The position numbers and the translations under genes are program-made. DNA of 64,000 nucleotides, from positions 129,378 to 193,377 of the forward strand of contig JBBTWP010000003.1 of NCBI GenBank assembly GCA_038062675.1, written 5' to 3'. This DNA is from Patescibacteria group bacterium (GTDB lineage Bacteria; Patescibacteriota; Minisyncoccia; Phycocordibacterales; UBA1550). This document shows, piece after piece, positions 9,161 through 50,700 of this stretch (its first letter is position 1; every line of letters starts with the position of its first letter). The notes below the pieces were generated by a model that was not told the origin of the DNA, searched no databases, and was given only the letters and a program-made list of their open reading frames with translations.

Positions 9161-9163
9161 CAA

Positions 9164-9729: not shown

Positions 9730-9750
9730 GTGTGGTCAAAAAACACCAAT

Positions 9751-9792: not shown

Positions 9793-9806
9793 AAACATTC
9801 GAGGTA

Positions 9807-10075: not shown

Positions 10076-10084
10076 TTATCCACA
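10076..10084 (+). promoter_or_regulatory. Consensus DnaA box TTATCCACA upstream of dnaA.
   Basis: Exact 9-mer match. Confidence 0.6.
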
Positions 10085-10169
10085 GTTTAGAAACACTCTC
10101 ATCCCCGTGTGTTGGTTTCGTATGAGCATTAGAAAGACTATAATACAAAGAACAGCCTCTTACCCCTTT

Positions 10170-24318: not shown

Positions 24319-24993
24319 ATGAGTATTAAGTACGCACCATTTATAAAAAGTCTTCGCACAAAAAAAGGGCTTTCACAGCTTGCGTTGGCGCAAAAGATAG
24401 GCATATCTCGCCCATTGTACATTGCAGTCGAGCAAGGGAAGCGAGAGCTTACACTGGGCGAATTTGATAAACTTTCGGGCGTGCTTGGAGTGTCGCTTGA
24501 GGAGCTTGAAGGTGGCGAGGTGCCCGATTACGAAAAGTACAAGCAAATGATTTTCATGTTTCTTCGTTTGAATAAAGAAATTACGAAAACAAAGCTGGCT
24601 AAACTCCTCTATTTTGCGGATTTTGGTTGGTTTTACTCTCATCTCAAAAGTATGAGTGGAATGCAGTATCGGAGAATTACTTATGGTCCTGTTGCGGATA
24701 CATATTTTCGACTTATCGACGAGATGTCCGAGGCGGGGGAGATATCTATCAAGCAAACAGAGGAGGGGGCTATGCTCATTTCCCAAACTCGAAGCGGATC
24801 AAAAGCGAACCTCTTGGGTGTAAGCATTGAAGAAAAGAAGCTTATAGAAAAGATTGATAAAAAATGGAAAGGCAAAAAAACAGCAGACATTGTAAAATTT
24901 ACCCACAATCAGTTTCCCTATCTTTACGCCCAAGATAATGAAATTGTGTCATACGGACTTTTTACTCAAGAAAATCCAGATGAAATCTACTAA
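24319..24993 (+). CDS. HTH-XRE domain fused to a Panacea (DUF4065, SocA/PanA-type) antitoxin domain.
   Basis: N-terminal KKGLSQLALAQKIGISRPLYIAVEQGKRELTL. C-terminal KLAKLLYFADFGWFYSHLKSMSGMQYRRITYGPVADTYF, as in Panacea-domain antitoxins. An imperfect palindrome tacata-tat-tatgta overlaps the -10 upstream. Confidence 0.7.
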   Translation: MSIKYAPFIKSLRTKKGLSQLALAQKIGISRPLYIAVEQGKRELTLGEFDKLSGVLGVSLEELEGGEVPDYEKYKQMIFMFLRLNKEITKTKLAKLLYFADFGWFYSHLKSMSGMQYRRITYGPVADTYFRLIDEMSEAGEISIKQTEEGAMLISQTRSGSKANLLGVSIEEKKLIEKIDKKWKGKKTADIVKFTHNQFPYLYAQDNEIVSYGLFTQENPDEIY

Positions 24994-25479: not shown

Positions 25480-26262
25480 ATGAATATCCAAATAAACAAA
25501 AAATTTTTTATTTTCGTTGTAATTTTAACCATCTTTTCTTTAATCGGGTTAACAATAGATAATTGGGTTTCGCAAAGCACCCCAGAACTCTTCATTGCCG
25601 GGGTGTCTGTCGCAGTTCTCTTTTTTCCAGCAATCCTCGCCATCCTAGTGTCATTTTTGTTGGGAACACTAGTAAAGGTAATCATAGTACTCAAAGATTT
25701 TATTACGAAGAAAGAACCAATTCAGCTTAAAAATATTTTCCCCCGCACCGTTTCTTTACCACTAGTTGTGCTCTTTGCGTTATTTTTTTACTGGTCACTA
25801 CTTTGTAATTCACTAAACACAGCTCGAGAAAAACCTCTTGCAAGCGCCATAATATCAATTCTGACAAGCGAGCGAGGAATGGCAGAGCTTTACTACGAGC
25901 AAAATAATGGTTCGTATGGGGGACAAAAGCCAGCTTCGCATGAAACATGTTCTGCTGAGAGCACAATGTTTGTAGATAAGAATAGCGGACTCAGGAACAT
26001 AGAAAGCAACCGTGCTTATATAAAAGATTCGATGGTTTGTGCCGTTGGGGGCAAGGGGCAGACATGGGCAGTTAGTGTTAAATTTAGAACAGACCTCGTA
26101 CAAAACAGCTGCATTCCTTTTTCTAAAGGAATAAAAGATTTTTTTATTACGCCAAAGGAATCTTTGTGGTGTGTAGACAGTAGTGGGAAAGCCGGTCCAT
26201 CCTTAGATGTTGAGACTCACAACGATGGTTCTGTGGGTTGTGCTACCCCGCCAGTGCTATAA
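25480..26262 (+). CDS. Membrane protein (about 4 TM) with a C-terminal type IV pilin-like domain. Paralogue of the C-terminal part of 6956..8266. Leaderless-type promoter TGGTATAAT-N6-ATG.
   Basis: [14 protein letters not shown]...C...C pilin-head pattern. Extended -10 at 25465-25473. Confidence 0.5.
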
Positions 26263-27698: not shown

Positions 27699-28988
27699 TT
27701 AGAACTTTCTATTTTTAGGCTTAATACTTTGAATGCCCACGTATTGTTGTAGGACTTCAGGTATCAAGACCGTCCCATCAGCTTGTTGGTTGTTTTCCAA
27801 AATCGCCAACATAGTTCGGGTAACAGCAACTGCCGTTCCATTGAGCGTGTGTACCAAACTCAACTTCCCGGTAGTTTTATCCTTAAAACGAACATTTAAG
27901 CGTCGTGATTGAAAATCAGTACAGTTTGAGGCAGAAGTAACCTCTCCATACCCTCCATTGTCGCCAATGAATGGCATCCATGCTTCGATGTCGTATTTCC
28001 GGTAGGCTGGCGCTCCGAGATCACTTTTACACATAAGTAGCACACGATACGGGAGATTGAGGGATTGATAGAAATCTTCCTCGATCGCCAACATTTCCTC
28101 GTGAGCCTCTGCACTTTTAGTTGGGTGAACAAATTGATAGAGTTCAACTTTGCTAAACTGGTGAACTCGATACAGACCCTTGCTCTCTCTTCCAGCACTA
28201 CCTGCTTCAGTCCTAAAGCAATGACTCACTCCGGCAATTTTTATCGGAAGGTGCTCTTCTGGGACTACTGAGTTTGCCATATATCCACCGATGGCAATCT
28301 CCGAAGTTCCTATAAGACTAAGGTCTCCCTCCGATAGAGAATATATCTGACTTGCCGGACCTCTAGGTGTGAATCCTGAGGCGGAGATGATGTCATCTCG
28401 TACTATTTCAGGTGTGGTCATCAACGTAAAGCCGTGTCTGTTTGCGATTTCCATTGCGTAGCGAATAAGCCCCATTTCAAGAAGAACAGCTTCGTTCTTA
28501 AGGAAATAAAACTTTGAACCAGTGATTTTCGCAGCTGCTTCAAAGTCCATGATGTCTAATTTTTTACCAAGCTCGACATGATCGAGAGGTTTAAAATTAA
28601 ACTTCGGTGGAGTACCAAAGAACTTTACTGGTATGTTGCCACCTTCGTCAGACCCTTGTGGTACATCAAAGGCACTAAGATTTGGAATTCTAAGAGCCTC
28701 ATGATGGTATTCCTTTTCAAGTATAGAGACCTCATCCTTAAGAGTTTTTATTGTTTCCCTCAAAATGGTAGATTCTTCCTTGAGTTGGTCTCGGGTTGGG
28801 TCATCTGCTTTTTCAAACTGCTTCGCAACTTGATTCACTCTTTGCTGGGATGTCTCAAGAGACATTTTTTTAATCTTCAGTTGCTCATATAGACCAACTA
28901 CTTTGTCTACGTTAGCATCAGCACAGCGTTCTTGTGTGTTTCTGCGAACCAGGTCAAGATTGTTTAGGATAAATCGTATATCTAACAT
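27699..28988 (-). CDS. serS: Seryl-tRNA synthetase.
   Basis: N-terminal coiled-coil arm. The class II motifs are present. Confidence 0.9.
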   Translation of the reverse strand: MLDIRFILNNLDLVRRNTQERCADANVDKVVGLYEQLKIKKMSLETSQQRVNQVAKQFEKADDPTRDQLKEESTILRETIKTLKDEVSILEKEYHHEALRIPNLSAFDVPQGSDEGGNIPVKFFGTPPKFNFKPLDHVELGKKLDIMDFEAAAKITGSKFYFLKNEAVLLEMGLIRYAMEIANRHGFTLMTTPEIVRDDIISASGFTPRGPASQIYSLSEGDLSLIGTSEIAIGGYMANSVVPEEHLPIKIAGVSHCFRTEAGSAGRESKGLYRVHQFSKVELYQFVHPTKSAEAHEEMLAIEEDFYQSLNLPYRVLLMCKSDLGAPAYRKYDIEAWMPFIGDNGGYGEVTSASNCTDFQSRRLNVRFKDKTTGKLSLVHTLNGTAVAVTRTMLAILENNQQADGTVLIPEVLQQYVGIQSIKPKNRKF

Positions 28989-29150
28989 AACACGCCTCCA
29001 TTAAAAAGACTTGATTTTAACAACGAACTGTATTTACTATGCCTACGACATCCTAATACTAATTTTATAGATAGTCAAGGAAGCACATTGACAAATAATG
29101 AAAATACAGTATTATTCACATAGGTGGAATAAAGAACCTTGAAACTCTAA

Positions 29151-30347
29151 TTGGAGGCTAAAATGAATAAAACTGTCCTAGGAAACCCGCTTGAGGCCGT
29201 AATTGAGTTTATGGCTTGGAAGGGGTGGTCGTCTTACTCTTGTGAGTCTTGCGGAAAAACCTTTTTCGTTAAAACATCAGTCATTCTGAATAACACAAAT
29301 TGTACGCGCGGTAAATGTTCTTTCGTGGCGGATTCATTTGTGGATCTTCCAAAGAAAAAGAAAAAGGTTTCACCTGTTGATGCAGTTGCAATAATGGAGA
29401 AACATTTTACTTCGCTTGGCTTTATGTTGGTTCCACCAAGGAACATTGCAAATTCTGATGGCCGTACCGATCTTGTTATTGCTGGTGTTCAAATGTTTGA
29501 CGACATTATTCATCAGAACAAAGAAGTCCGTGAAGAAAAGATGTTCGTTGCACAACCATCCGTCCGCATGCAATTTCAGGCACAGGTGCAATCTCAAGAG
29601 GGGATATCAACATCCTTCGTGAACGTGTGCACTGAAAAGATGGGTTCAGGATTTGATACTCACCTTGAGGCTGTTGATCATTGGTGCGGAGTTCTCTCTA
29701 GGCTTGGTTTGCATATGAATGACCTAGTCATCGTCATGCGTACCTCGCAAAAAGATTGGGGGACGGGACCGTTTATTGCTTCGGAACTCTTCTTTGTATA
29801 TGGAGGGCTCGAATTAGGAGATGCAGCATATCTTCTAATCCCACAGTCCTCACGGGACCCACTACCGATTAGTGATATCGGTTTTGGTCTAGAGAGAATC
29901 GTATGGGCAATGAATAAAACCGAGTCATATTTCGATGTGATTACCCCATGGACTTTTGGTGGCTCAAAGGAAATGTTTGATTCATGTCGTACACTCGCAT
30001 TACTTGTTATCTCTGGGGTAAAAGCAAGCAATAAAGGTCCAGGGCTTCAGTTTAGACGTTTCGCAAAAGCCCTCAGTGAGAAGTATTACGGAGAAGATAT
30101 TTTTCAAATCATTCTGCACTACTTCGGCTACTGGGAATGTTTCATTAAGCCCTCAGTAAGTAGAGTCGAAGCGCTCCAGACGGTGCGGTTAGAAGTTGAA
30201 AGGTTTATCAATCTGAGAATAGGGCAGATGATGAAGCTCCCGCCTCCTCGCGAGGAAACAACAGAGGCATATTTTAACCGCTTGGTGTATACTCATAGTG
30301 TAGATATTTACGAGCTACGCAAGGCGATAAAAACATGCAAAATATGA
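29151..30347 (+). CDS. Alanyl-tRNA synthetase catalytic-domain paralog: N-terminal CxxC Zn-ribbon, AlaRS aminoacylation core, start of the tRNA-recognition domain. It lacks the editing and C-Ala domains.
   Basis: LVPPRNIANSDGRTDLVIAGVQMFDDII aligns with the AlaRS segment around FTNAGMNQFKDVF. DIGFGLERIVWAMNKTESYFDVIT aligns with the AlaRS GMGLERI…NYDIDLF motif. LQFRRFAKAL aligns with YVLRRIIRRA. Confidence 0.55.
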   Translation: MEAKMNKTVLGNPLEAVIEFMAWKGWSSYSCESCGKTFFVKTSVILNNTNCTRGKCSFVADSFVDLPKKKKKVSPVDAVAIMEKHFTSLGFMLVPPRNIANSDGRTDLVIAGVQMFDDIIHQNKEVREEKMFVAQPSVRMQFQAQVQSQEGISTSFVNVCTEKMGSGFDTHLEAVDHWCGVLSRLGLHMNDLVIVMRTSQKDWGTGPFIASELFFVYGGLELGDAAYLLIPQSSRDPLPISDIGFGLERIVWAMNKTESYFDVITPWTFGGSKEMFDSCRTLALLVISGVKASNKGPGLQFRRFAKALSEKYYGEDIFQIILHYFGYWECFIKPSVSRVEALQTVRLEVERFINLRIGQMMKLPPPREETTEAYFNRLVYTHSVDIYELRKAIKTCKI

Positions 30348-31033
30348 ATAAGGATAACAAAATATATTTGTCGGGAGGTGGTAATGAACATCAATCATCC
30401 ACCCTCGACAAATTTTTTTTTGACTCGATCCCACAAGGAGGTAATTTTTTATACATTCCCGTAGCGTTACGCGGGCACAAGTTGTTCCCAACTGCTAATT
30501 TGTGGATGAATGGGATTTTAGAGATGCACAAAAGGACTGATATTCAATTTGAAACATTAGATGATCTTTTAAGTAAAAATATTGATGATCTAGAAAAATT
30601 TGATGCTATATATATAGGTGGTGGGAATACATGGAGTCTCTTGAAGGAGTTTGAGGAATCTGGTTTCTCAAAGACTCTAGTCCAGTACCACAACTCTGGT
30701 CACTCCGTGTATGGAGGTAGTGCTGGGGCAATTATTTTAGGCGCAAAAATAAATACACATGACGACAAAAATGAAGTAAGTTGGATAGATAATAATGGTC
30801 TAAATTTGTTGAATAATTATTCAATTGCTTGCCACTTTAAAAATGAGGACGAGGAAAGGTTTAAAAATTGGGCAACAGAGAATAATCTACCAATAATTTG
30901 CCTTTTTGAGGAAACAGGATTAATTATTGGTGATGCAAAAATAGAATGTGTTGGTACTAAACCTTTTTTTCTTTATACTCCTCAGGGAGAGAAGTTGATG
31001 AAGGAACCAGGAGAAACACTCTCTTTGTTATAA
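30335..31033 (+). CDS. Peptidase S51 family (peptidase E / cyanophycinase-like). Overlaps the AlaRS-like gene by 13 nt.
   Basis: GGGN...IGGGNTW and the GGSAGAIILG nucleophile elbow. Confidence 0.7.
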   Translation: MQNMNKDNKIYLSGGGNEHQSSTLDKFFFDSIPQGGNFLYIPVALRGHKLFPTANLWMNGILEMHKRTDIQFETLDDLLSKNIDDLEKFDAIYIGGGNTWSLLKEFEESGFSKTLVQYHNSGHSVYGGSAGAIILGAKINTHDDKNEVSWIDNNGLNLLNNYSIACHFKNEDEERFKNWATENNLPIICLFEETGLIIGDAKIECVGTKPFFLYTPQGEKLMKEPGETLSLL

Positions 31034-31077
31034 AAAAAGTGCCACACGCTTTAGGCGTGGGCACTTTTGTCTGCATT

Positions 31078-32337
31078 TTAGTATAGATTAATTTCTCCTT
31101 TCACAATTTTTTGGGTCGTTTCATTTGCGTTCGCGAGGCAACGCTCAACAATCCCTTCTATAAATTGTCTTTGTGTGGGTGAAATACTCCCACCATAGAC
31201 ATCGACATAGACAGACCATGGATCTGAAATACTGCGGCCCATTTGTGATGTTAGGTATACGCAGGTTTCAAGTCCCAGCAAACTAAAAATTTCACTGGAA
31301 ATGAGCGATCCGATTGCTGTATAAATCTTGCCTACATGATAGACAGGATTTTTACCACAGCAAGCTTCTATGCTCATGTGCCTCGTAAAGGGGATAATTC
31401 CATTGTAACGATTCCCTCTACCAACAACTCCCTCGTCGCCACTCTCGATCGCACTACCGGTTAACGTGAGGTAGTAGTCTGACTTGGATGGGTTGTCTCG
31501 TGTGTTAAGCGAAACAGACACCTCGTAGTTCTTGTACTGATTAAGCACTAACTCTTTAATTAATTGTTCAAGGAGAGCAAGCTTTTGTGCGTAAAATTCC
31601 TTGTCAGGGGTATGTAGGGCAATGAAAGGAACGCACGCAGTAATACCCACCTTCTTTTGTATGCGCCTAGCCATAACTTTGATGTCTGACCCCACAAAGG
31701 GATAAAGTTTTTTGAATTCTTTGCTATTGAGAGTGTTTTCCGCAAGGATAACGATCTTTTCGGTGACACTTAGTGGGCTGTAGGAAACAGTCGTAGAAGT
31801 ATCATTCGAACGTAAGCTATTGTCGTGGAAAACAGCAAACTCTTTTTGCGGGACCTCAAAGAAAAATTGACGCTCGTTCAGTGTAGACCCGTCTGCCTCA
31901 TAGACAACCCCTGGACCAGGTGCAAAGTGCGTATTATTCACAATCATGAGCCACTTATCCAGATCGAGAAGAGGTAATACCTCCCCGAAATGTTTGCGAA
32001 CGACATCGGTTACTATTTCAAGATAGGGGATTGTTTCGTTCTGGTATGTTCTGGTGAATCGGCAATTCAGATAAAGCCGTATTGGCATTTGCATTTCACC
32101 GCCACCAAATTTTACCTTTGCCGAACCGCCCGAGAGCGCAATCTTGTCTACCATGTGACGGAGGATAATACCGTAATGATCTAAACAGTACTGCGAATAC
32201 GCCTGAGAGACTTTCTCCGCGATGGTGTCACAAAGTGTGTCTGGGTGACCGATACCTTTTCTTTCAACTACTTCATAGTCAGTATCGTCGATACAGGGTT
32301 TACCCGAAGCGCTTATAAACAGGTTATTTTTATCCAT
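31078..32337 (-). CDS. Archaeal-type S-adenosylmethionine synthetase (MAT, PF01941-like). Start at MDKNNLF with a GGAGGT RBS.
   Basis: VERKGIGHPDTLCDTIAE matches the archaeal MAT signature VERKGIGHPDS(I/L)AD. Confidence 0.65.
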   Translation of the reverse strand: MDKNNLFISASGKPCIDDTDYEVVERKGIGHPDTLCDTIAEKVSQAYSQYCLDHYGIILRHMVDKIALSGGSAKVKFGGGEMQMPIRLYLNCRFTRTYQNETIPYLEIVTDVVRKHFGEVLPLLDLDKWLMIVNNTHFAPGPGVVYEADGSTLNERQFFFEVPQKEFAVFHDNSLRSNDTSTTVSYSPLSVTEKIVILAENTLNSKEFKKLYPFVGSDIKVMARRIQKKVGITACVPFIALHTPDKEFYAQKLALLEQLIKELVLNQYKNYEVSVSLNTRDNPSKSDYYLTLTGSAIESGDEGVVGRGNRYNGIIPFTRHMSIEACCGKNPVYHVGKIYTAIGSLISSEIFSLLGLETCVYLTSQMGRSISDPWSVYVDVYGGSISPTQRQFIEGIVERCLANANETTQKIVKGEINLY

Positions 32338-32553
32338 GTTACCAACCTCCAAATGGGTTAAAAAATTGTGAATGTACTGGTAGCCAACTGCTTGCACTCT
32401 ATAATTTTTTTAAAGAGTTGTCAATTTTTTTTGGGCGTGCAATCGTTGGTAATGATTTACACAGCTCTATCCAATTTTAGATTCCTGCTGAGTAAAATTT
32501 ATTTGTGAGTTTGCCACTCACAGAACTACACTAGTGGTGGTTTCTGGTATACT

Positions 32554-33516
32554 ATGAAGTATATGAGATTCGGTAATTTCGAAGGGATGAACCAAAAGCC
32601 TCTCGGGGAGGGGGATGAGAAAAAAGTTTTCATTAACCCCGAAGACGAGGGGAGGGTTATTGCTGTCACTAAAAAAGAGGCAGGAAAAGACACTCCGCGC
32701 CAACTCAAAGGCAGATACTATCTCACCAAAATAGCGCACATGCTTTTGCCCCAGCATGTGCCGGATATTTATCAAGCGGGAGAGTCTCAGAGTGGCGTGC
32801 AAACCGTTGATGCAGAGCGCATTGCACATACACAAGGACACGCACTTTTACAAGAAGCGCGTCAATTGGGAGAAGGGGAGGAGTCTGCACATCAGCAAAT
32901 TATCAAAGAAATGGATGGTGCGATGACAAAAGTGGATATGGAGCTTGAGCGCATTGGGCTTAGTTTTAATATTGACGCAAATGTTGGGAACTACACAAAA
33001 GACGAAGCAGGAAATGTATATTATCTCGAAACGTTCAAACCTTGGCAGGTGGATGTTGCAAACCCGAAAGAGCTCGAAGTGCTTTTTGATGAAGAAGAAA
33101 TGAGGATTGCTATTGATGGGATGGCTGACCAAGAGGCAAAGGCGGAATGCATGAATCATTTGGAAAGACTTCTTGCGCTCCTTGAAGAAGAGCGACAGGA
33201 GCTACGAGAACAACCGGAAGCGATTTCAATAGAGTGCGGTCCGCATGTTCAAGAACTTGAAGCGACACTCGAACCGTTTCTTAAAGAAGATGTTCTTGCT
33301 GTTTTGCATACCATCCAAACGGAAGACGATGCTATAAAGAGCAAGGAGCGAGCGGATGCTAAAAAAGTTCTTCTCGTCGCATTTAATAAGCTGAAATTCT
33401 TGCAGAACGAAACAAATATCACCACAGAAGAATATGCGCGACTACAGGCGAAATACAAAACTCTCGATCGTGCGATAGGGGTGGGGAACCGCGGGGTGAT
33501 TGACCATACGAGGTAA
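32554..33516 (+). CDS. Uncharacterised acidic protein, possibly with an atypical kinase-like fold.
   Basis: Weak resemblance only (GEGDEKKVF...AVTKK; FNIDANVGN). Not diagnostic. Confidence 0.35.
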   Translation: MKYMRFGNFEGMNQKPLGEGDEKKVFINPEDEGRVIAVTKKEAGKDTPRQLKGRYYLTKIAHMLLPQHVPDIYQAGESQSGVQTVDAERIAHTQGHALLQEARQLGEGEESAHQQIIKEMDGAMTKVDMELERIGLSFNIDANVGNYTKDEAGNVYYLETFKPWQVDVANPKELEVLFDEEEMRIAIDGMADQEAKAECMNHLERLLALLEEERQELREQPEAISIECGPHVQELEATLEPFLKEDVLAVLHTIQTEDDAIKSKERADAKKVLLVAFNKLKFLQNETNITTEEYARLQAKYKTLDRAIGVGNRGVIDHTR

Positions 33517-33831: not shown

Positions 33832-33876
33832 GGGTCGCGCTCAAGGGATCTTTTGCGACCCGATTCCACAGAATCG
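33832..33876 (+). promoter_or_regulatory. Copy 2 of the conserved bipartite element: hairpin GGGTCGC…GCGACCC followed by palindrome CGATTCCACAGAATCG.
   Basis: See 419-461. Lies about 10 nt upstream of TAAAAAT and an ATG at 33904. Confidence 0.55.
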
Positions 33877-33903
33877 AAAATTCCTTTAAAAATAAGCAGA
33901 AAA

Positions 33904-34299
33904 ATGCTAGAGTTTGGGGATAATATGGGAATTTTTGATATATTAAGCAGTGCGGCAAAGATAGCTAAGGAATCTGGTAAACTAGAATTACAAGGGGAGA
34001 TTTTGGGTGTTTATGAAAAACTTTTGGAGCAACAAAAGAAAATTTCGGATTTAGAAACTGAGAATCGAGAACTGAAACAACAACTTAAGACAAAAGAAGC
34101 TCTTGTTTTTGAAGGTAATGTTTATTGGATAAATGACAATGACAATGACAAAAAGAATGGACCTTTCTGTAAAATTTGTTATGAAAAAGAGAATAAGATG
34201 ATCACTTTAGATATTGGAAGCTTTGGTTTTGGTTCATCGAGAAATCTAGATTATTATCAATATCATTGCTTGGTATGTAAAAATTATTTTAAGAAATAA
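33904..34299 (+). CDS. Small coiled-coil protein with a C-terminal 2xCxxC Zn-ribbon. First gene of the R-M operon. The track ORF starts at 33853, inside the element.
   Basis: CKICYEK…CLVCKNYF. Abuts the mod start codon. Confidence 0.45.
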   Translation: MLEFGDNMGIFDILSSAAKIAKESGKLELQGEILGVYEKLLEQQKKISDLETENRELKQQLKTKEALVFEGNVYWINDNDNDKKNGPFCKICYEKENKMITLDIGSFGFGSSRNLDYYQYHCLVCKNYFKK

Positions 34300-34300
34300 A

Positions 34301-36400
34301 ATGAAACTCACCGACAACGAAAAACGAGATGTGATGAAGTATTTGGAGGCGGGGAAACCGCTTCCGGAGAAGTATCGGTTCTTGCTGTTTGGAGATGCGC
34401 AGGAGGTGGAGCTACTTTGGAATGGGAAGACGAATGAGGTGACGAATGTAGTGTTGCCGTTTCAGACTATTGAGCAGATAGATGAGCCGAGGAGCAATGA
34501 GAAGTTTGGTAATCAAGCCTCACTTTTTGATATGTCGGGTAGGCAGATAACTGGCTGGACTAATAAATTGATTTGGGGCGACAACAAGCTCATTCTCTCG
34601 TCGCTCAAAAATGGTCCGATGCGAAAAGAGATAGAAGCGCAGGGCGGTTTGAAATTGATTTACATCGACCCGCCGTTTGATGTGGGCGCGGATTTTTCTA
34701 TGGATATTACGATCGGTGAAGGCGAGGATGGTGAAAGTTTTACTAAAAAACCGTCGGTGATAGAAGAAATCGCCTACCGTGATACTTGGGGCAAGGGCGC
34801 GGACAGCTTCATTGCGATGATTTATGAGCGTTTGAAATTGATGCATGATTTGCTTGCGGAGGATGGGAGTATTTATGTGCATTGTGATTGGCGGGTAAAT
34901 AGTCACATGAGACTGGTTCTTGATGAGGTTTTCGGGAGGGATAACTTTATTAGTGAAATAATTTGGTATTACCAGAATGGCGGAGGGCGTTCGAAGTCTT
35001 CATTAAGCAGACAGCATCAAACCGTACTCTGTTATAAAAAAGGAGATAATTACCTATATAATTCTGTAGATATGGCAGTTCCATACAAGGAGACAAGTAT
35101 GTATTCTAAATATGGAATCACTAGTGAGGCAGACAAGAAGTATAGTGCATCTGAGGGTGGAAAAAATATGGATGATGTTTGGGTTATAGATTTAATTAAT
35201 CCATCTGCAAAGGAAAGGACTGGATACCCTACACAAAAACCCGAGAACTTTATTGAAAATATCATTAAGGCATCTTCAAACGAAGGCGACCTCGTTGCTG
35301 ATTTCTTCTGTGGTTCGGGCACCACGCTTGCTGTTGCGGAAAAACTTGGCAGAAAATGGATTGGTTCTGATTTGGGGAAATTTGGTATACATACATCGCG
35401 CAAGCGATTGATTGGTGTACAGCGTGAACTCAAAAAGGCGGGCAAGGATTTTCGCGCATTTGAGATTTTGAATGTGGGCAGGTACGAGCGCGAGAACTTC
35501 CTTGCGGTCAATGACGACCTGCGCGCGGAGGAAAAAGCAAAGCAGGCAGAGCGAAAAGAAAAAGAGTTTGTGAAGCTCATCATTTCGGCGTATAAAGCGG
35601 AACCAATCTCGTCTTTTGAGACGATGATAGCAAAGAAGCGCGACAGATTGGTCGCGATCGGACCTATCAATGCGCCTGTTTCAGGGAAATTCATCGAGCG
35701 TATCATCAAGGAATGCGGAGAGAACAACATTACCAAAGTGGATGTCCTCGGTTTTGATTGGGAGATGGGCTTTGACCGCCATGAGTTTGGCAATAGCGGT
35801 ATCGATATTGCGCTCAAGGTCATTCCTAAAGAAGTGTTTGATAAACGCGCGGTGGAAAGAGGACAGGTGAAGTTTTATGATGTGGCGTTTATTGAGGCGA
35901 AGCCAATTATTGCAGGCAGGGGGAATATCAAGGAGCTTTCCATTGAGCTTGCCGACTTTTCTGTTTTTTACAATCAAGATGACTCGGGTGAGATAGCAGA
36001 GGCGCTTCGCCCTGGGAGCTCCAAGGTGGTGGTAGAAAACGGGCAGGTGATAAAGCTCAGCAAAGATAAAGTGACGGAGGCGGTGACGCGAGAGATTTTG
36101 ACGAAAAAATGGAGTGACTGGATAGACTACTGGGCGGTGGATTATGATTTTGCGGACAGAAAAGAGATAATCAAAGTCGTAGAAGATGGCGAGGAAAAAG
36201 AGGTGTGGACAGGCGACTACATTTTCGACAACGAGTGGCAGAGTTTTCGTACAAAAAGAGCCTTTCGAAGTGGTAAATATCAAGATATCGAGCTCGTCTC
36301 TGCGCCAAAGGAGATGCAAAAAGGGACTTACAAAGTGGCGGTAAAGGTCGTGGACATTTTCGGGAATGATACAACGAGGGTGGTGGAGGTTAAGATATAA
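34301..36400 (+). CDS. mod: Beta-class N6-adenine/N4-cytosine DNA methyltransferase with the layout of a Type III R-M Mod subunit.
   Basis: Motif IV IYIDPPF precedes motif I FFCGSGTT (beta-class order). Res partner downstream. Confidence 0.8.
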   Translation: MKLTDNEKRDVMKYLEAGKPLPEKYRFLLFGDAQEVELLWNGKTNEVTNVVLPFQTIEQIDEPRSNEKFGNQASLFDMSGRQITGWTNKLIWGDNKLILSSLKNGPMRKEIEAQGGLKLIYIDPPFDVGADFSMDITIGEGEDGESFTKKPSVIEEIAYRDTWGKGADSFIAMIYERLKLMHDLLAEDGSIYVHCDWRVNSHMRLVLDEVFGRDNFISEIIWYYQNGGGRSKSSLSRQHQTVLCYKKGDNYLYNSVDMAVPYKETSMYSKYGITSEADKKYSASEGGKNMDDVWVIDLINPSAKERTGYPTQKPENFIENIIKASSNEGDLVADFFCGSGTTLAVAEKLGRKWIGSDLGKFGIHTSRKRLIGVQRELKKAGKDFRAFEILNVGRYERENFLAVNDDLRAEEKAKQAERKEKEFVKLIISAYKAEPISSFETMIAKKRDRLVAIGPINAPVSGKFIERIIKECGENNITKVDVLGFDWEMGFDRHEFGNSGIDIALKVIPKEVFDKRAVERGQVKFYDVAFIEAKPIIAGRGNIKELSIELADFSVFYNQDDSGEIAEALRPGSSKVVVENGQVIKLSKDKVTEAVTREILTKKWSDWIDYWAVDYDFADRKEIIKVVEDGEEKEVWTGDYIFDNEWQSFRTKRAFRSGKYQDIELVSAPKEMQKGTYKVAVKVVDIFGNDTTRVVEVKI

Positions 36401-36402
36401 AA

Positions 36403-38019
36403 ATGAAAACTTCAATCGAACAATTAGATAGTTGGCTACAAAATCAAGAGGGTTTGAATCTTGAGTTTAAAAAAGCAGAAAATAGTTTTAGCAATACTGA
36501 GCTTTTTAATTACTGCAGTGCGTTGTCTAATATGGGCGGTGGAAAGTTAATTTTCGGCATTGAGCCCAAAGAACACAAAGTTGTAGGGACTAACCTGTAT
36601 TGTGGTACTTTCAATATTATCCCGAATCAGATTTTTCAAAAGCTCGGTGTCCGTGTTGACATAGAAGAAATAGAGCACCCTGATGGCAGAGTTTTAATTT
36701 TTCACATACTGGATCATTACATCGGGAAGCCAATAAAATCAAATGGAACCTACTGGATGCGGTCAGGGGAATCGCTTACGCCTATGGACGAACAAACTCT
36801 TAGGAATAAACTTAATCAACATGAGCAAGATTTTTCGGCTTCAGTTGCCACTGGAGTCACTTTTTCTGATTTAGACAACGAGGCAATTTCTGTTTTGCGA
36901 AATATTCTCATAAAAAATAACAAGAAGACACTCACTGACCTAAGTGATACGAAATTGCTTACGGCCCTTGAGCTGACGACAGAGAAGGGTGTGACTTTTG
37001 CAGGGCTTATTTTACTCTGTAAGAAAGAAAAGATTGATGAATTGCTTCCTTGCTCAGAAATTATTTTTGAATGGCGACAGGAGGAAAAAATCAGTCATGA
37101 TTTTCGCAAAGAATGGAGGGAATCATTTTTGAAAATATACGATGACATATGGAAAACAATTAGCGATAGGAATAGTCGCATTCCAATTCAAGAAGGGTTA
37201 ATACAAAGCGAGATCCTTGCGTTCAATGAAAAAGCCATAAGAGAGGCACTTTTAAATGCAGTCACCCATAGAGACTATTCTGTCCAATCGCAATCCGTGT
37301 TCATTAAAGCAGATTCTAAAAATTTAATAGTGATTAGTCCGGGCGGGTTTCTTCCTGGCATAACACCAGACAATGTAATAGATAAACAAGCATGGAGAAA
37401 TCGCAGACTTGCGGAAGTCTTTCAAAAATTAGGGCTTGTTGAACGGGCAGGTCAGGGGATGAACCAAATTTTTGAAACCACTATTCGTGAAGGGAAAGGA
37501 CTCCCTGATTTGTCAAAATCAGATGACTTCCAAGTTGTGTTAGATATGCCAGCGAGAGTAAAAGATAAAGACTTCATCTTGTTTTTGGAAAAAATTTCTC
37601 ACGAAAGACAGACAATTTTTTCTTTTGAAGAAATATACGAACTAGAATTATTGAGAGAGAATAAGGTTGTTAATAATCTAAAAAATAAGAATAAGTTTTT
37701 AGAATTAGGTATTATTGAGAAAATTAACAAAACTAGTGGTACAAAATATATTTTATCTCACAAATATTATAGGTATGAAAATAAGCCAGGTGTTTATACG
37801 AGAATAAAAGGGTTAACGAGAGAACATAAGAAAGAATTGATTTTGAAACATATAGAAAGAGAAGGTAGTGGAAAGAAAAAAGATTTTAGGGATGCATTCC
37901 CAGACTTGAAAGTAAGTGATATTTCTAATTTTCTTCAAGAATTAAAAGACGAAGGAAAGATTCAACGAAAAGGTTCAGATAGGGCAGGATATTGGGTGCT
38001 TGGAGATAGTCCGAATTAG
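36403..38019 (+). CDS. AlbA_2 (Schlafen-like) N-terminal domain plus HATPase_c_4 C-terminal domain protein (the so-called RecG-like putative transcriptional regulator), located between mod and res.
   Basis: LEFKKAENSF…NMGGGKLIFGIEP (AlbA_2). ALLNAVTHRDYS…NRRLAEVF…ERAGQGMNQI (HATPase_c_4). Confidence 0.65.
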   Translation: MKTSIEQLDSWLQNQEGLNLEFKKAENSFSNTELFNYCSALSNMGGGKLIFGIEPKEHKVVGTNLYCGTFNIIPNQIFQKLGVRVDIEEIEHPDGRVLIFHILDHYIGKPIKSNGTYWMRSGESLTPMDEQTLRNKLNQHEQDFSASVATGVTFSDLDNEAISVLRNILIKNNKKTLTDLSDTKLLTALELTTEKGVTFAGLILLCKKEKIDELLPCSEIIFEWRQEEKISHDFRKEWRESFLKIYDDIWKTISDRNSRIPIQEGLIQSEILAFNEKAIREALLNAVTHRDYSVQSQSVFIKADSKNLIVISPGGFLPGITPDNVIDKQAWRNRRLAEVFQKLGLVERAGQGMNQIFETTIREGKGLPDLSKSDDFQVVLDMPARVKDKDFILFLEKISHERQTIFSFEEIYELELLRENKVVNNLKNKNKFLELGIIEKINKTSGTKYILSHKYYRYENKPGVYTRIKGLTREHKKELILKHIEREGSGKKKDFRDAFPDLKVSDISNFLQELKDEGKIQRKGSDRAGYWVLGDSPN

Positions 38020-38102
38020 TAGATTCCGAATGTATTTAGTAGAAAAAATGACAAAAAATGACAAAAAATAAGGGTGTGAATAAGTAGTAAATCAAATAGT
38101 TT

Positions 38103-40805
38103 ATGGCCCTACACAAAAATTTCCCAAAAGACCCATACGCGATTTTAGACCCCGAGATTAGGTGGTTTCCTGCTGACGAGGATTTGCGCGAGAAGGGTTT
38201 TGATAAGCTTATTCCACCGCTTGTGGCTGATTTGCGCAAGAAAGTGAAGGAGTGGCGGGATATGCAGTACGAGGGCGCAAGCGACACATCGAAAGCGCTC
38301 CTGAACTGGTGGTTTAAAGAAGAGCATGTTATATACAATGCAGATGGATCGTCGTTTAACTTTCGTTACTATTTTGCACAAAGGGAAGCACTGGAGACGG
38401 CGGTGTGGCTCTATGAGGTGGCGAAAGTGAAGGATAAGCATGATCTCATCCGCTACAATTCTACCGGCGTTCTGAGTGCGCAGATGTTCCCCGAGGAGTG
38501 GCTTCGCTTGGTGATTAAAATGGCGACAGGTGCCGGCAAGACAAAGGTGATGAGCCTTGTGGTTGCGTGGGCGTATTTTCATAAAAAATACGAGGCAGAT
38601 TCGAATCTCGCAAAGAATTTTCTTTTGATAACGCCGAATGTTATTGTTTTTGAAAGAATTAAAAATGATTTTGAAGGTTTGAAGATATTTTTTAGCGACC
38701 CTGTTTTACCTGACAATGGTTATCAAGGGCAAAACTGGCAGGATGATTTTCAGGTCACGCTTCACTTACAGGATGACTTGCGAAATGTTTCTGACACAGG
38801 TAACATATTTTTGACGAACATTCACAGAGTATTTGAGAGTGATGTTCGTGTTGCAAGTCCTGACGACGAAGACACAACAGAGTATTACCTTGGGAATAAA
38901 CCTGTAGCAAAAACGAATGATTCAACGGTTGATTTGGGGATGATTGTGCGTGATATTGATGAGCTCATTATTATTAATGACGAGGCACATCATGTAAGAC
39001 CAAAGACGGCTTGGTATAAATCAATCGAGGATATACATAACAAATTGAAAGCAAAGGGCTCAAAGCTCTCTCTCCATATAGACGTGACCGCTACCCCAAA
39101 AGATGACGATGGTTCTATGTTTGTTCAAGTTGTATCAGACTATCCTTTGGTAGAAGCAATTCATCAAAATATAGTAAAAATACCGGTGATGCCCGACGAG
39201 GCGAGCCGTGCAAAACTGAAAGAAAATCAAAGTATAAAATTTAGTGAAAAATACAGGGACTACATCAATCTTGGCGTAGAAGAATGGCGTAAAACCTATG
39301 AAGAATTAAAGCAGATGAATAAAAAATCGATTCTTTTTATTATGACCGACGACACAAAGAATTGTGATGAAGTGTCAGAATACATTCAGGCAAGTTTCGT
39401 GGACTTAAAAGGTGCGGTTCTGACCATTCATACTAACAAGAGCGGGGATATTTCCGAAAGCGTGACGGGGAAGAATAAAGAAGAGCTGGATAAACTGAGG
39501 AAGCAGGCGAACGAAATAGACAGCATGGAAAGTCCGTTCAAAGTGATTATTTCTGTGATGATGCTCAAGGAGGGTTGGGATGTTAAGAATGTTACGACTA
39601 TTGTCGGGCTGAAGCCTTTTACTGCTGAAAATAAAATTTTACCAGAGCAAGCATTAGGAAGAGGTTTAAGGAGGATGTTTTTTGGAAAAGATGCTGAAGA
39701 AAAAGTAAGTGTTATTGGAACACAGGCTTTTATGGATTTCGTGGCGTCGATTAAGAGCGAGGGGGTTGTTCTTGAGAAAAGGGCAATGGGGGAGGGGACA
39801 AAGCCGATCGCACCAATGGTTATTGAGGTAGACAAAGAAAACCCAAAGAAAGATATCGAGAGGTTGGATATTGAGGTTCCTGTGATGTCCCCGAGAATTC
39901 AAAGAGAGTACAAAAACTTAGGAGTACTCGATGTTGCCACTTTTGGAAATGTGAAAGTTCTGGTAAAAACTTTTTCTGAGGAAGAAAAAAGGCAGATCGT
40001 GTTTAAGGAAGTTATCAGTGAAAAAATAAGTCATACGGTTGATTTGACTGGAGAAATTTCCTCTGACTACCAAAGAGTGGTCGGCTTCTTTGCTCAAGCG
40101 ATAATGAGAGAGCTAAGAATGTTTAGTGGTTACGATATTTTGTTTGGCAAGGTTAAGGAATTTATCGAAAAACAGATGTTTGAACAGATGGTAGATATAT
40201 CAGACCTCAATATCTTGGCAAATTTGTCCGAGGTGGAATATGCAAGACTCATTAAGGATTCTTTCAAAAAGGCTATCAATGATCTCACTATAGAGGACAG
40301 TGGTGATACGGAGATTAAAAATTATATTAAAATTAGCGATGCACGCCCATTTGTGGTGAATGATAAATCGTATTTGATATCAAAAAAATCTGTTTTCAAT
40401 AGAATTGTTGGTGACAGTAACTTTGAATTGGAATTTGCTGATTTCCTCGAGGGTTGCGAGGATGTAATTTCGTACGCGAAAAACTTTCAGAACAAAGAAG
40501 CAAGTGCTCTACGGGTTGAGTATAAAAACTCTGAGGGAATGATAGCTAATTATTACCCAGATTTTTTTGTTAAGAAAGATGACAAGACGGTATATATTGT
40601 TGAAACAAAAGGGAGAGAGGAAGCTGACGACAAATTGAAGTTTGAAAGGTTGCAAAAATGGTGTGTGGATGTGAACAACAGACAAACCAAAGTAGTATAT
40701 AAAGCTCTCTACCTAAAACAGGAGGAATGGAACAAGGATAAACTTAGGAATTTTGATGAGGTTGTGAGGGTATTTGGTTCGACCAGTCACAAGAATGGTC
40801 AATAG
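38103..40805 (+). CDS. res: Type III restriction enzyme Res subunit (SF2 helicase plus C-terminal PD-(D/E)xK nuclease).
   Basis: Walker A MATGAGKTKV. DEAH box INDEAHHV. C-terminal YYPDFFVKKDDKTVYIVETKGRE. Confidence 0.8.
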   Translation: MALHKNFPKDPYAILDPEIRWFPADEDLREKGFDKLIPPLVADLRKKVKEWRDMQYEGASDTSKALLNWWFKEEHVIYNADGSSFNFRYYFAQREALETAVWLYEVAKVKDKHDLIRYNSTGVLSAQMFPEEWLRLVIKMATGAGKTKVMSLVVAWAYFHKKYEADSNLAKNFLLITPNVIVFERIKNDFEGLKIFFSDPVLPDNGYQGQNWQDDFQVTLHLQDDLRNVSDTGNIFLTNIHRVFESDVRVASPDDEDTTEYYLGNKPVAKTNDSTVDLGMIVRDIDELIIINDEAHHVRPKTAWYKSIEDIHNKLKAKGSKLSLHIDVTATPKDDDGSMFVQVVSDYPLVEAIHQNIVKIPVMPDEASRAKLKENQSIKFSEKYRDYINLGVEEWRKTYEELKQMNKKSILFIMTDDTKNCDEVSEYIQASFVDLKGAVLTIHTNKSGDISESVTGKNKEELDKLRKQANEIDSMESPFKVIISVMMLKEGWDVKNVTTIVGLKPFTAENKILPEQALGRGLRRMFFGKDAEEKVSVIGTQAFMDFVASIKSEGVVLEKRAMGEGTKPIAPMVIEVDKENPKKDIERLDIEVPVMSPRIQREYKNLGVLDVATFGNVKVLVKTFSEEEKRQIVFKEVISEKISHTVDLTGEISSDYQRVVGFFAQAIMRELRMFSGYDILFGKVKEFIEKQMFEQMVDISDLNILANLSEVEYARLIKDSFKKAINDLTIEDSGDTEIKNYIKISDARPFVVNDKSYLISKKSVFNRIVGDSNFELEFADFLEGCEDVISYAKNFQNKEASALRVEYKNSEGMIANYYPDFFVKKDDKTVYIVETKGREEADDKLKFERLQKWCVDVNNRQTKVVYKALYLKQEEWNKDKLRNFDEVVRVFGSTSHKNGQ

Positions 40806-47588: not shown

Positions 47589-47732
47589 CTCTTTGAAGTT
47601 TAACTTTTGGATGTGTGTCATAGCAATATGGCCCACATCCGCATTTTCAAGTTTTTGACCTATTTTTTGGTCGAGGGTTTGAAAATGCGCGTAATATCGT
47701 GTATTGTGCGCACAAGAGTAAAACGTAATTAT

Positions 47733-50700
47733 ATGAATACCATTATGAAAAAAATACAAACAATCCTTTTAGCTTTCGCACTTTTGGTAGTGCCGACGGC
47801 TTCTTTTGCGGCGGCGCTTAATAATGACGCGCAAGATTTTAAGACATTGCGCGCGGTTAATATTACAAAAAATCCCGGATGTGTCGCTTGTCGTTCGACC
47901 GCGATAACCGCAAATCCGGGGGATGTTCTTGCGTTTTCAATTTACTATCACAATACTGGTCCTGACACAGCAAACAATGTGCGCGTGTGGTTGACTCCAC
48001 AAATAAGTCCATCAGGAACAACTCATTCGTTTGTTGCCAAAGTAAGCGCTGATAATGCTTCGGCGGTGAACGGTACTACTGTTGTCACTCTTTCAGGGAA
48101 TCAAACAATAGATTTTCTTCAGGGTTCAGTAATCTGGTGGCCAAACCAATCAGTAACGACTTCAACTGCGTTTCCTTCTGGACAAACAGGAGCGGAGATT
48201 TTTACGAGTGAGGGCTTGAATCTTGGCTCTATTGCTTCGGGATGGGGGACGCAAGGGGCGGTGAATATGCGTTTTCAGGTTGCTAACACAGGAACGGGTG
48301 GAGGCACACAACTTTCTGTCCCAGTTGTTGCCACTCATGTCGCAACGAATGTTTTGACAGGTTCCGCGACACTCAACGGATATGTTGACCCAAAAGGCAC
48401 AACCGACACGGTGCGCTGGTTTGAATGGGGCGCTGCAACGTCGCTCAATAATACGACATATCAAGTAAGTCAGGGTGGGAGCGCTTCAGATTTTTCTGCG
48501 AGCATCTCCGGTCTTACACAAAATAGTGTTTATTCCTACCGTGCTGTTGCACGCAATGCGCAAGGGACAGTATATGGCAGTGTGATGACGCTTACCACTA
48601 CACGCGTGAGTGAGCCAGTGTACGCACCTCTCGTGTCCACACGTTCTGCCTCAGGTGTTCTCTATGAGACTGCAACACTCAACGGTTTTGTTGATCCAAA
48701 AGGTTCAGCCGATACGGTGCGTTGGTTTGAGTGGGGAAGTTCATCTTCTCTCAATAATTCAACCGCTCGTGTAAATCACGGAAGCTCAGCTTCGAATTTT
48801 TCTGCAAACATTTCTGGACTTACTCAAAACACTACCTACTACTACCGTGCAGTTGCGCAAAATGCGCAGGGGACGGTCAACGGAACTACGATGAGTTTTA
48901 CGACAGAATACTTCAACATACCAGATTACCCCTCAGAAATTCTTGTTTCTACGCGTTCAGCGTCGAATGTTTCCCATACCTCTGCAACACTCAATGGCTA
49001 TGTTGATCCAAGTGACTCGACCGATACTGTGCGCTGGTTTGAATGGGGCAGTTCATCATCCATGAACAACACTACCTACCAAGTAAATCAGGGTAGTAGT
49101 GCTTCGAATTTTTCTGCAAACATTTCTGGACTTACTCAAAACACTACCTACTACTACCGTGCAGTTGCGCGAAATGCACAGGGGACGGTGTATGGCAGCG
49201 TGCTTTCGTTTACGACGAGCTACTCTGGAGGCGGAGGTTACTCAATCCCTCTTGTGTACACACGAACAGCTACAAACATCACCTATGACTTTGCTATCTT
49301 GAATGGACATGTTGACCCAAAAGGCACGACCGACACAATGCGCTGGTTTGAGTGGGGGAGTTCTTCGTACATGAACAACACTACTTCGCGTACCTATCAG
49401 AGCAATAATGCATCAGATTTTTCCGCAAGTATTTCAGGATTGGCACAAAACACCACCTACTACTATCGTGCTGTTGCACAAAATTCTCAAGGAACCGTTT
49501 ATGGGGATATGATGAGTTTTTCAACGAACTACACAGGCGGTGGCAATCAAACAACGTTTGTTCCAGTAGTTTCTACACGTAATGCCGAAGTTTCAGGCGA
49601 CTTTGCTGTCTTGAATGGATATGTCGACCCCAATGGCTCAAATGACACAACTCGCTGGTTCGAGTGGGGTGGTTCACAATCACTGGGAAGCCAGACGAGT
49701 CGTCTTGCTCAAGGAAATGTTGCATCGAATTTCAGCGCAACGCTTTCAAGCCTTGTTCCTAACACCACTTATTATTATCGTGCGATGGCGCGCAATTCAC
49801 AGGGTACGGTGTATGGCAGTGTGCTTTCGTTTACGACAAATAGTTACGGCGGCGGATATACCGGAGCACAAATTGCACCAACCGTGTCAACAACACTTGC
49901 AACTGAGATTGCGGCAAACAGTGCACGCTTGAATTCCCTCGTGTTTTCAACAGGGAACTATCCATCAAACGCGTGGTTTGAATGGGGTACTAACACGGCG
50001 CTTGGCAACAAAACGCAAACCGTGAATGTTGGCTCGCTTCCTTCGGTGCGTCATACCGACGTGATTACCGGACTTGTGCCAAGTGTGACGTACTACTATC
50101 GTGCCGTTGCAGAAAATCCCTATGGAAAGAGTTACGGTTCAATTTATAGTTTTGTGGTGAACCAAACTATTAACACTCCTCCTCAAACACCAACAACAGT
50201 GGTGATAACTCAACCTGCGCGACCAACACCTGTTCGTCCGCAAGTTGTGGTCGTAAGTCCGGGTGCGGGAACAGAGTCATTGGTTGAATTGCTACTTGAT
50301 GGTGGCGCCGATACGATTTCTTCAAACGAAGAGCGAACCTATCGCATCTCGTGGAAAAACACCAGCAAGCAGACATTGAAACGCGTTGTCTTGCGCGCCA
50401 TTATCCCTGCTCAAATGAATTTCAAGAGCGCAAGTACTGGCTCTTTCTCGAGCGAGGGAAACATTGTTACTGTCGATGCAGGGACGTTGACTCCGGGTGC
50501 GATTGGCGAAGCGACGTTTGTCGCGACCACAGAGCGTGGACTTGAGTCAGGAACACTTTTGGTAACAACTGTTAATCTTGTATATACCGATGCGAAGGGT
50601 GGACAGGGAGATGCAGTTGCGTATGTAACCCATCGTGTGGAAGCACGAGACGGTGGACAGGGCGCAAGCCCGTTTGGTGCCGGGTCATTCCTTCCGACAA

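Follow-up and report, generated by a model that had tools for sequence, protein, structure and literature searches.

What does a shortened relative of alanyl-tRNA synthetase (AlaRS) do in the genome of a Patescibacteria group bacterium, where it lies beside a hydrolase, an archaeal-type S-adenosylmethionine (SAM) synthetase and the seryl-tRNA synthetase gene serS? The question is raised by a stretch of 64,000 nucleotides, referred to here as the window, from contig JBBTWP010000003.1 (assembly GCA_038062675.1, positions 129,378 to 193,377). The protein, AlaL, is a truncated class II protein derived from archaeal AlaRS, and its open reading frame (ORF) of 398 aa occupies 29151..30347 on the forward strand. 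It is followed on the same strand by the gene of an S51-family serine hydrolase (30335..31033, 232 aa) and, in convergent orientation on the reverse strand, by a gene for methionine adenosyltransferase (MAT), the SAM synthetase (31078..32397, ORF of 439 aa). serS lies on the reverse strand at 27699..28988, divergent from AlaL, and matches TIGR00414 with 472 bits. The four ORFs listed in a preliminary description of this DNA, namely these three and a 320-aa protein considered below, are all present where it placed them, as is the serS neighbour. The segment 29151-32397 is best explained as the minimal, Paceibacteria-type form of a widespread and undescribed accessory module, usually found next to serS. 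We hold with good confidence that it is a conserved functional module and not a housekeeping aminoacyl-tRNA synthetase (aaRS).

Single-sequence searches with AlaL gave weak matches (TIGR03683 at 9e-8, AlaRS entries of the PDB at 0.08). A family profile built from 31 homologues aligned with A. fulgidus AlaRS at 1.7e-10 over residues 11-269. An AlphaFold2 model of AlaL (pLDDT 86.6) was compared with known structures using Foldseek, and the archaeal AlaRS structures 2ZTG and 3WQY ranked at the top (E 4e-16, TM 0.68), followed by bacterial and human AlaRS fragments and then by GlyQ and PylRS. AlaL is a true, very divergent homologue of archaeal AlaRS, and the likeness to the AlaRS core that had first been drawn by eye is real though remote. 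Its scores lie far below the AlaRS cut-offs (30.8 vs 744.7 bits for TIGR03683, 17.6 vs 457 bits for TIGR00344), and Pfam reported no match to PF01411 in the window's AlaL. Among the profile searches that the preliminary description had proposed, the S51 and MAT profiles PF03575 and PF01941 found their proteins and the AlaRS profile did not.

The sequence and the model divide AlaL into an N-terminal Cys4 ribbon, a catalytic core and a partial tRNA-recognition helical domain. In both the ORF and the model the protein ends, at residue 398, after this short helical domain, and Pfam found no match to PF07973, the tRNA_SAD editing domain. The loss of the editing and C-Ala domains recorded in the preliminary description is borne out, as is its view of AlaL as a free-standing paralogue of the AlaRS core and not a gene fragment. 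The description had also proposed that the ribbon was gained. Position by position, its CxxC...C...C segment can be aligned with the N-terminus of archaeal AlaRS ('RCPKCGKHFW...ICGDPPCE'); the ribbon was inherited. It is gone from more than half of the distant AlaL members.

To what extent the active site has been kept was examined by residue conservation among 49 diverse members and by comparison with two references, A. fulgidus AlaRS and one AlaRS from the candidate phyla radiation (CPR). Conserved in at least 90% of members, and most of them in 49/49, are Q114, Q135, P136, R139, F156, N158, G223, D224, S241, D242, G244, F245, G246, E248 and R249. The features of an AlaRS-type class II fold, a motif 2 arginine and a GxGxGxER motif 3, are present; in AlaL the motif 2 arginine is R139, and the GxGxER of motif 3 is G244-R249. 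These motif residues and D242 are invariant among the 49 members. Relative to both references AlaL retains the ATP-binding residues and the aspartate before GxGLER (D242), which we take to be the residue that binds the alpha-amino group. The side-chain pocket is different. The strand that reads E-V-A-T-L-V in archaeal and E-I-W-N-N-V in bacterial AlaRS has become E-L-G223-D224-A-[A/G/S] in AlaL, and the FFEM strand of AlaRS has become F156-x-N158. These alanine-pocket replacements are family-wide and occur in all AlaL lineages. The replaced strands presumably correspond to N212 and V214 of E. coli AlaRS, positions that shape the alanine pocket, and a changed amino-acid specificity is therefore suggested.

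The beginning of the tRNA-recognition domain can still be made out, with 'NKGPGLQFRR' of AlaL aligning with 'SNNDQGYIVRRLIRR' of CPR AlaRS. The domain is shortened to about 125 aa vs about 190 aa, and the asparagine equivalent to the reader of the G3:U70 pair is kept in 15/27 distant AlaL members.

The S51 protein, which has a class I glutamine-amidotransferase-like fold, matches PF03575 at 7e-23 (81.7 bits vs a cut-off of 23.9) and matches the structures of PepE and Lmo0363. Its catalytic triad is nearly invariant in homologues (Ser129 in 42/42, His167 in 42/42, Glu192 in 40/42). It scores below the equivalog cut-offs for both PepE (53 vs 156 bits) and cyanophycinase (28.9 vs 126.6 bits). The AlaL and S51 genes overlap by 13 nt, as expected from the earlier report of an S51-family peptidase gene overlapping the AlaRS-like gene, and through this overlap S51 is predicted to be translationally coupled to AlaL.

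The identification of the third gene as an archaeal-type MAT also stands. It matches PF01941 at 5e-102 (342 bits vs a cut-off of 27) and aligns over its full length with the T. kodakarensis MAT 4L4Q at 6.5e-70, with the ERKGIGHPD and GDDGxVGRGNR motifs in register. Its score of about 310 bits against NCBIfam equivalog cut-offs of 435-577 marks it, on sequence grounds, as a divergent CPR/DPANN branch of the archaeal-type MATs. Mean identity to relatives is 71% for MAT, 68% for SerRS, 56% for AlaL and 54% for S51. A motif scan of 1.4 Mb of fetched related loci found no bacterial MetK motif, so MAT may be the sole SAM synthetase of these organisms. If it is, the nucleoside-building role proposed for it beforehand would be only one of several possible readings.

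Whether these genes travel together was asked of about 130 loci, comprising long contigs, 48 loci from GTDB species genomes and 80 metagenome loci. Neighbours were called by phmmer and hmmsearch, and loci with at least 4 kb on both sides of AlaL were treated as well flanked (n = 23). S51 lies within 3 kb of AlaL in 22/23 well-flanked loci and MAT within 4 kb in all 23. These loci span 17 AlaL clusters at 45% identity and include both Patescibacteria and DPANN archaea, so the conservation of the trio in relatives, which had been set as a check on the preliminary description, is found. The start of S51 overlaps the stop of AlaL in 33/38 loci, and the S51 and MAT linkage pattern is repeated in the 80 metagenome loci. 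The position of MAT varies, being downstream and convergent in some lineages and directly upstream on the same strand in others. Because gene order differs between lineages, the linkage of AlaL, S51 and MAT appears to be selected for, beyond mere inheritance. The conserved unit is AlaL, the S51 hydrolase and the archaeal-type MAT. Adjacency to SerRS recurs in several deep lineages, in differing arrangements, and is not universal; the strongest case is locus L137, where AlaL and SerRS overlap by 4 nt.

The AlaL family is large. A word-indexed search returned 188 close homologues, about 394 aa long and each either unnamed or called 'hypothetical', and the UniProt label of one of them says only that it is a class II aaRS profile domain protein. 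An exhaustive profile search gave 494 representative clusters at 50% identity, 241 of them at E<=1e-30, with representatives nearly all 330-420 aa in length. The loci carry the labels of Paceibacteria-type CPR, Giovannonibacteria, Doudnabacteria and Shapirobacteria, and of the DPANN groups Woesearchaeota, Nanoarchaeota and Micrarchaeota. The family is centred on CPR and DPANN. Labels on loci L021, L009, L037, L040, L048, L053, L054 and P0078 include Saccharibacteria, Gammaproteobacteria, Bacillota, Clostridia, Bulleidia and Bipolaricaulota. These labels of metagenome-assembled genomes outside CPR and DPANN are unverified, the gene content looks CPR-like, and they may be artefacts of binning or classification; they were not used as evidence of wider spread. 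A literature search found no paper describing the AlaL family or the module.

Is AlaL simply the AlaRS of a reduced genome? The relative L035 (Patescibacteria contig JBAZKO010000011.1) carries a canonical bacterial-type AlaRS 8 kb upstream of AlaL, on an ORF that runs off the start of the locus. This AlaRS has the motifs FTTAGM, QKCIR, FFEMMGN, EIWNNVFMQ, DTGLGLER and SNNDQGYIVRRLIRR and the editing motif CGGPH. Its homologues are about 605 aa long, match PF01411 and PF07973 and are named alanine--tRNA ligase. Proteins of this type are the 'small-AlaRS' of CPR and DPANN (bioRxiv 10.1101/2023.05.29.542759). The small AlaRS of L035 (19-1815), like those of L055 and L056, has catalytic, tRNA-recognition and editing domains and no C-Ala domain, and its gene sits in the conserved order murB-alaS-infA-rpsM-rpsK-rpsD-rpoA-rplQ-rplM-rpsI-prfA. 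In L035 a six-gene island, Ino1-MAT-AlaL-S51-GT1-methyltransferase, lies between prfA and comEC. L055 and L056, whose AlaRS are 71-78% identical, have the same ribosomal-protein, prfA and comEC region without the six genes. Their absence there indicates that the module is an accessory island inserted in the L035 lineage. A scan of all fetched loci for AlaRS motifs found them only in L035/L115, L055 and L056, and no alaS was found within the 64-kb window. The possibility left by the preliminary description that AlaL is the organism's only AlaRS is answered in the negative for L035, where the canonical enzyme coexists with it.

The setting of AlaL in other lineages suggests what it might act upon. 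A CPR sub-clade has the operon Ino1-MAT-AlaL-S51-GT1-SAM methyltransferase, of which L035 is an example, with an inositol monophosphatase (IMPase) or an FkbM methyltransferase nearby. In the archaeal locus L049, a DPANN example, the order is MAT, Ino1, AlaL, GT1, S51. Some loci have an Amidohydro_2 protein and a HAD phosphatase inserted between S51 and MAT. Ino1, a GT1 or GT4 glycosyltransferase, a phosphatase and an amide hydrolase co-occur with AlaL in L034, L035, L046, L049, L050, L052 and L131. Gene fusions also occur. P0197 is a natural AlaL-S51 fusion, P0212 joins AlaL to a methyltransferase, and L050 and L052 have S51 fused to a GT1 glycosyltransferase. P0215 is a possible second AlaL-methyltransferase fusion, with a motif-I-like 'DLGG' seen by eye and no methyltransferase domain found by Pfam; the C-terminal extension of P0200 had no match in the loci or in Pfam.

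A homologue search with P0212 returned two proteins only and led to the contexts L057 and L058. L057 (612-14003), on a contig of higher GC (0.49), encodes an FkbM methyltransferase, a polysaccharide deacetylase, a methyltransferase, GT2 and GT1 glycosyltransferases, the AlaL-methyltransferase fusion, a radical SAM/SPASM protein, its own archaeal MAT, a further radical SAM protein and a DegT/DnrJ/EryC1 sugar aminotransferase. L058 has the order radical SAM-DegT-AlaL-MAT. Both are without S51. From their predicted gene products, the extended clusters are contexts of sugar, cyclitol or glycan biosynthesis with heavy use of SAM. The general idea, already voiced in the preliminary description, of an amino-acid ligase for small-molecule or cell-surface modification fits them.

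Our preferred reading, offered tentatively and by analogy with MshC of the mycothiol pathway, is that AlaL may be a non-translational, adenylate-forming amino-acid ligase in glycoconjugate or cyclitol biosynthesis. AlaL would bind ATP and the alpha-amino group of an amino acid in the manner of AlaRS. With the side-chain pocket remodelled, AlaL probably acts on something other than plain alanine, and our guess would be a small polar amino acid such as serine. In place of tRNA, a sugar or cyclitol glycoside would then accept the aminoacyl group on an amine or hydroxyl. S51 would catalyse a nearby step on an amide or ester bond, which would free the amine of the acceptor or else trim and recycle the product, and MAT would provide SAM to the methyl and radical-SAM tailoring enzymes of the fuller clusters. 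That AlaL adenylates and works without tRNA, which amino acid and acceptor it uses, and what S51 and SAM contribute are all predictions of this model.

Several observations weigh against this ligase proposal. No glycosyltransferase, Ino1 or methyltransferase was found in the 64-kb window, whose own clade clusters only the AlaL-S51-MAT trio and serS, so that the proposed acceptor is an extrapolation from relatives that are distant. Coexistence of AlaL with a canonical AlaRS is shown for L035 alone. S51 enzymes are known to cleave Asp-X dipeptides or cyanophycin and are not known as deacetylases. No SAM-consuming partner is as constant as MAT, and a SAM-supply role alone does not fully explain this. 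The motif N-x-G-x-G-xxx-R-R, the best conserved of the AlaRS tRNA-recognition domain, is retained in AlaL and partly conserved in distant members. SerRS lies within 4 kb of AlaL in 11/23 well-flanked loci, and tRNA-Ser genes occur near the module in L003, L033, L037 and L045.

These last points fit a tRNA-using enzyme, and a different chemistry can be modelled on AcmF of ascamycin biosynthesis. In this explanation AlaL would not adenylate at all. It would take its aminoacyl group from an aminoacyl-tRNA, for example Ser-tRNA made by the neighbouring SerRS, and pass it to a small acceptor occupying what was the ATP/adenylate pocket, perhaps SAM or an adenosyl compound derived from SAM and made by the adjacent MAT, with S51 as an AcmE-like hydrolase that reverses or processes the reaction. 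AcmF has the same architecture, limited to aminoacylation and tRNA-recognition domains, and its partners are the dedicated aaRS AcmD, the hydrolase AcmE and an adenosine-type acceptor (PMC12945691). The retained tRNA-recognition motif is consistent with a tRNA-bound donor. Such a mechanism would also explain the linkage of serS, which adjoins in 11 of the 23 loci and appears translationally coupled in L137, of the nearby tRNA-Ser genes, and of MAT, which adjoins in 23/23 loci and also in the S51-less L057 and L058. Against it, AcmF is reported to be without most of the residues that bind ATP and activate alanine (N to Q, D to E), whereas AlaL keeps the motif 2 and motif 3 arginines and the aspartate in every lineage. 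The neighbouring SerRS scores as an ordinary housekeeping serS, a reader of the acceptor stem derived from AlaRS is not expected to accept tRNA-Ser, and the equivalent of the G3:U70-reading asparagine is present in only 15 of the 27 distant members. The sugar, inositol and DegT context favours a sugar-type acceptor. We consider this main rival unlikely, while allowing it a real chance.

A second alternative is that AlaL is a genuine minimal tRNA synthetase, serving as a second or replacement AlaRS or for a non-canonical amino acid/tRNA pair, with S51 as a trans-acting deacylase. A catalytic and tRNA-recognition core suffices in the Tupanvirus mini-AlaRS (PMC10036535; bioRxiv 10.1101/2023.05.29.542759), the ATP-binding residues and part of the tRNA-recognition motif of AlaL are conserved, and in the window AlaL lies among translation genes (serS). 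The family-wide replacement of the alanine pocket and the scores far under the AlaRS cut-offs argue the other way, as do the canonical AlaRS of L035 and the insertion of the module at a site where close relatives do not have it. The examined loci contain no dedicated tRNA inside the module, only scattered tRNA-Ser genes nearby, and the methyltransferase fusions and the glycosyltransferase, Ino1 and DegT context are unlike those of a translation enzyme. This alternative is improbable.

It is more improbable still that AlaL, S51, MAT and serS share no function and are independent housekeeping genes held together by inherited synteny in reduced genomes. Housekeeping genes form the flanks in the window's clade, the cell may have no SAM synthetase other than MAT, and MAT and SerRS are more conserved than AlaL and S51, all of which would suit simple synteny. 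The linkage nevertheless survives rearrangement of MAT from upstream on the same strand to downstream on the opposite strand, spans the divide between Bacteria and Archaea, is accompanied by gene fusions and moves as an island. The preliminary description also suggested that AlaL confers immunity or resistance to an aminoacyl-nucleoside antibiotic. Extra aaRS copies acting as self-resistance genes in some antibiotic clusters and a MAT able to feed nucleoside chemistry lend this idea some appeal. It is scarcely credible, since a resistance copy must charge tRNA-Ala accurately, AlaL has neither the editing and C-Ala domains nor the alanine pocket that a substitute for AlaRS would require, and the family occurs in hundreds of CPR and DPANN lineages without antibiotic-type clusters.

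AlaL appears to move between CPR and DPANN together with its own SAM synthetase. An extension of the ligase proposal, which we regard as rather doubtful, is that CPR and DPANN share a horizontally mobile pathway in which AlaL, S51 and a dedicated archaeal MAT build a new aminoacylated small molecule or surface glycoconjugate. The product could be a mycothiol-like aminoacyl-aminosugar-inositol cofactor. It could also be an adenomycin-type compound of adenosyl, cyclitol, aminosugar and amino-acid parts, with SAM as both building block and methyl donor; adenomycin also carries serine. Speculatively, the building blocks of adenomycin would match MAT, Ino1, the glycosyltransferase and AlaL/serS. 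Adenomycin is an adenosine 5'-ether of chiro-inositol bearing gulosamine (PMC6540904). If the mobile-pathway idea is right, AlaL would found a new functional class among the enzymes derived from aaRS.

The boundaries of the window's genes and of the module were also considered. From homologue lengths and promoter-like sites, AlaL likely starts at the ATG at 29163 (394 aa) and MAT at the ATG at 32337 (419 aa). The NCBI model of AlaL (340 aa) starts too late and cuts off the Cys4 ribbon. A promoter-like site, TTGACA-16-TATTAT with 11/12 matches to the consensus, lies in the divergent serS/AlaL intergenic region (29088..29115, forward strand), and another consensus match precedes MAT (32424-32396, reverse strand); the region holds no more such sites than are expected from shuffled sequence. 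Terminator-like hairpins, identified by pattern match, lie on both strands between the convergent S51 and MAT genes (31042..31074). Rfam searches at E<=1 for a riboswitch or T-box upstream of AlaL or MAT returned chance-level matches only. The block had been described as visibly low in GC. Its GC content is 0.423 vs 0.439 for the whole window, and 27% of windows of the same size are equal or lower; a low-GC island was rejected, the S51 gene alone (0.351) being GC-poor.

The 320-aa protein (32554..33516, forward strand) had been taken for an acidic kinase-like protein that completes the block. Its Pfam matches are all sub-threshold, neither PADLOC nor Pfam assigned it to a family, and no counterpart was found in any related locus compared. 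It was rejected as a member of the block. It borders a defence island directly downstream (33853-40805) and may belong there instead. The island comprises a small coiled-coil/Zn-ribbon ORF (33853-34299), a type III methyltransferase (34301-36400), a Schlafen/AlbA_2 protein with weak matches to the Argonaute-system models pAgo and SIR2-PNTD (36403-38019) and a type III restriction helicase (38103-40805).

Elsewhere in the window, dnaA (10107-11525) and dnaN (11762-12862) lie at the minimum of cumulative GC skew, so the window probably holds the replication origin; the origin region, including 9100-10100, is AT-rich (GC 0.33-0.37). A VirB4/TraG-like P-loop ATPase is encoded at 1600-3426, and in L003 a PrgI/TraC/VirB4-type set (1-6638) lies just upstream of serS-AlaL. 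Genes of conjugation or type IV-like systems thus lie near the module in two Paceibacteria genomes. An HTH-SocA/Panacea-domain protein, an antitoxin-like gene, lies at 24319-24993 and is followed at 25480-26262 by a 260-aa membrane or secreted protein without family assignment. At 47607-50795 a probable large surface protein of 1062 aa carries repeated fibronectin-III/PhoD-N/purple-acid-phosphatase-N-like domains and a DUF11 repeat.

The module matters first as a large family, 494 clusters in all, that is annotated only as 'hypothetical' and yet has a clear and testable genomic context. It is concentrated in two radiations of ultra-small symbionts, where metabolism and surface chemistry are understood least. 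To our knowledge, the enzymes that aminoacylate amino sugars and cyclitols are mostly unassigned; if amino sugars or cyclitol glycosides receive their amino acids from AlaL, an enzyme for that modification would be identified. AlaL could also lead to a low-molecular-weight cofactor of CPR and DPANN that is still unknown. For annotation, AlaL genes should not be counted as AlaRS in surveys of genome completeness or aaRS complement.

How does AlaL compare with systems already known? Its closest relative in sequence and fold is archaeal AlaRS (A. fulgidus 2ZTG/3WQY, P. horikoshii 2ZZE). The two share the N-terminal CxxC...C...C, the QPxxR of motif 2, the [SD]DxG[FY]GLER of motif 3 and the opening part of the tRNA-recognition domain. 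AlaL, at about 394 aa vs about 900 aa, has shortened loops and neither the editing nor the C-Ala domain, and differs in the pocket at G223, D224, the small residue at 226 and N158. Reduced AlaRS that keep a catalytic and tRNA-recognition core, as AlaL does, are found in small genomes, namely the Tupanvirus mini-AlaRS (PMC10036535) and the small-AlaRS of CPR and DPANN (bioRxiv 10.1101/2023.05.29.542759). Unlike AlaL these keep the canonical AlaRS motifs, and the small-AlaRS, a separate gene coexisting with AlaL in L035, keeps the editing domain as well. The module's S51 shares the Pfam match and the Ser-His-Glu triad with its family (PepE 1FY2, Lmo0363 3L4E, cyanophycinase). Its obligate pairing or fusion with AlaL or a GT1 domain is a context not described for S51 enzymes.

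The mycothiol pathway uses Ino1, the GT4 glycosyltransferase MshA, a phosphatase, the deacetylase MshB and the CysRS-like ligase MshC. The fuller AlaL clusters match this logic with Ino1, GT1/GT4, a phosphatase (IMPase or HAD), an amide hydrolase and an aaRS-derived ligase. The likeness is one of analogy, homology of AlaL to MshC being excluded because MshC is a class I CysRS derivative and AlaL belongs to class II. S51 is unrelated to MshB, and mycothiol synthesis has no SAM or MAT component. There are few ligases derived from aaRS (such as MshC, GluQRS, PoxA, the amino acid:carrier-protein ligases and AcmF), and new chemistry has come to light with each of them. AcmF, which we know from a review description, is a truncated AlaRS-like, Ala-tRNA-dependent transferase with the same truncation as AlaL (PMC12945691). 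AcmF is reported to have lost the residues that bind ATP and activate alanine, whereas AlaL keeps D242, R139 and R249 and has Asp, not Gln, at the Asn-equivalent position. AcmF belongs to a Streptomyces antibiotic cluster and AlaL to CPR and DPANN genomes, with S51 and MAT. Such ligases are known; new here are the archaeal AlaRS parent, the obligate S51 and archaeal MAT partners and a spread centred on CPR and DPANN.

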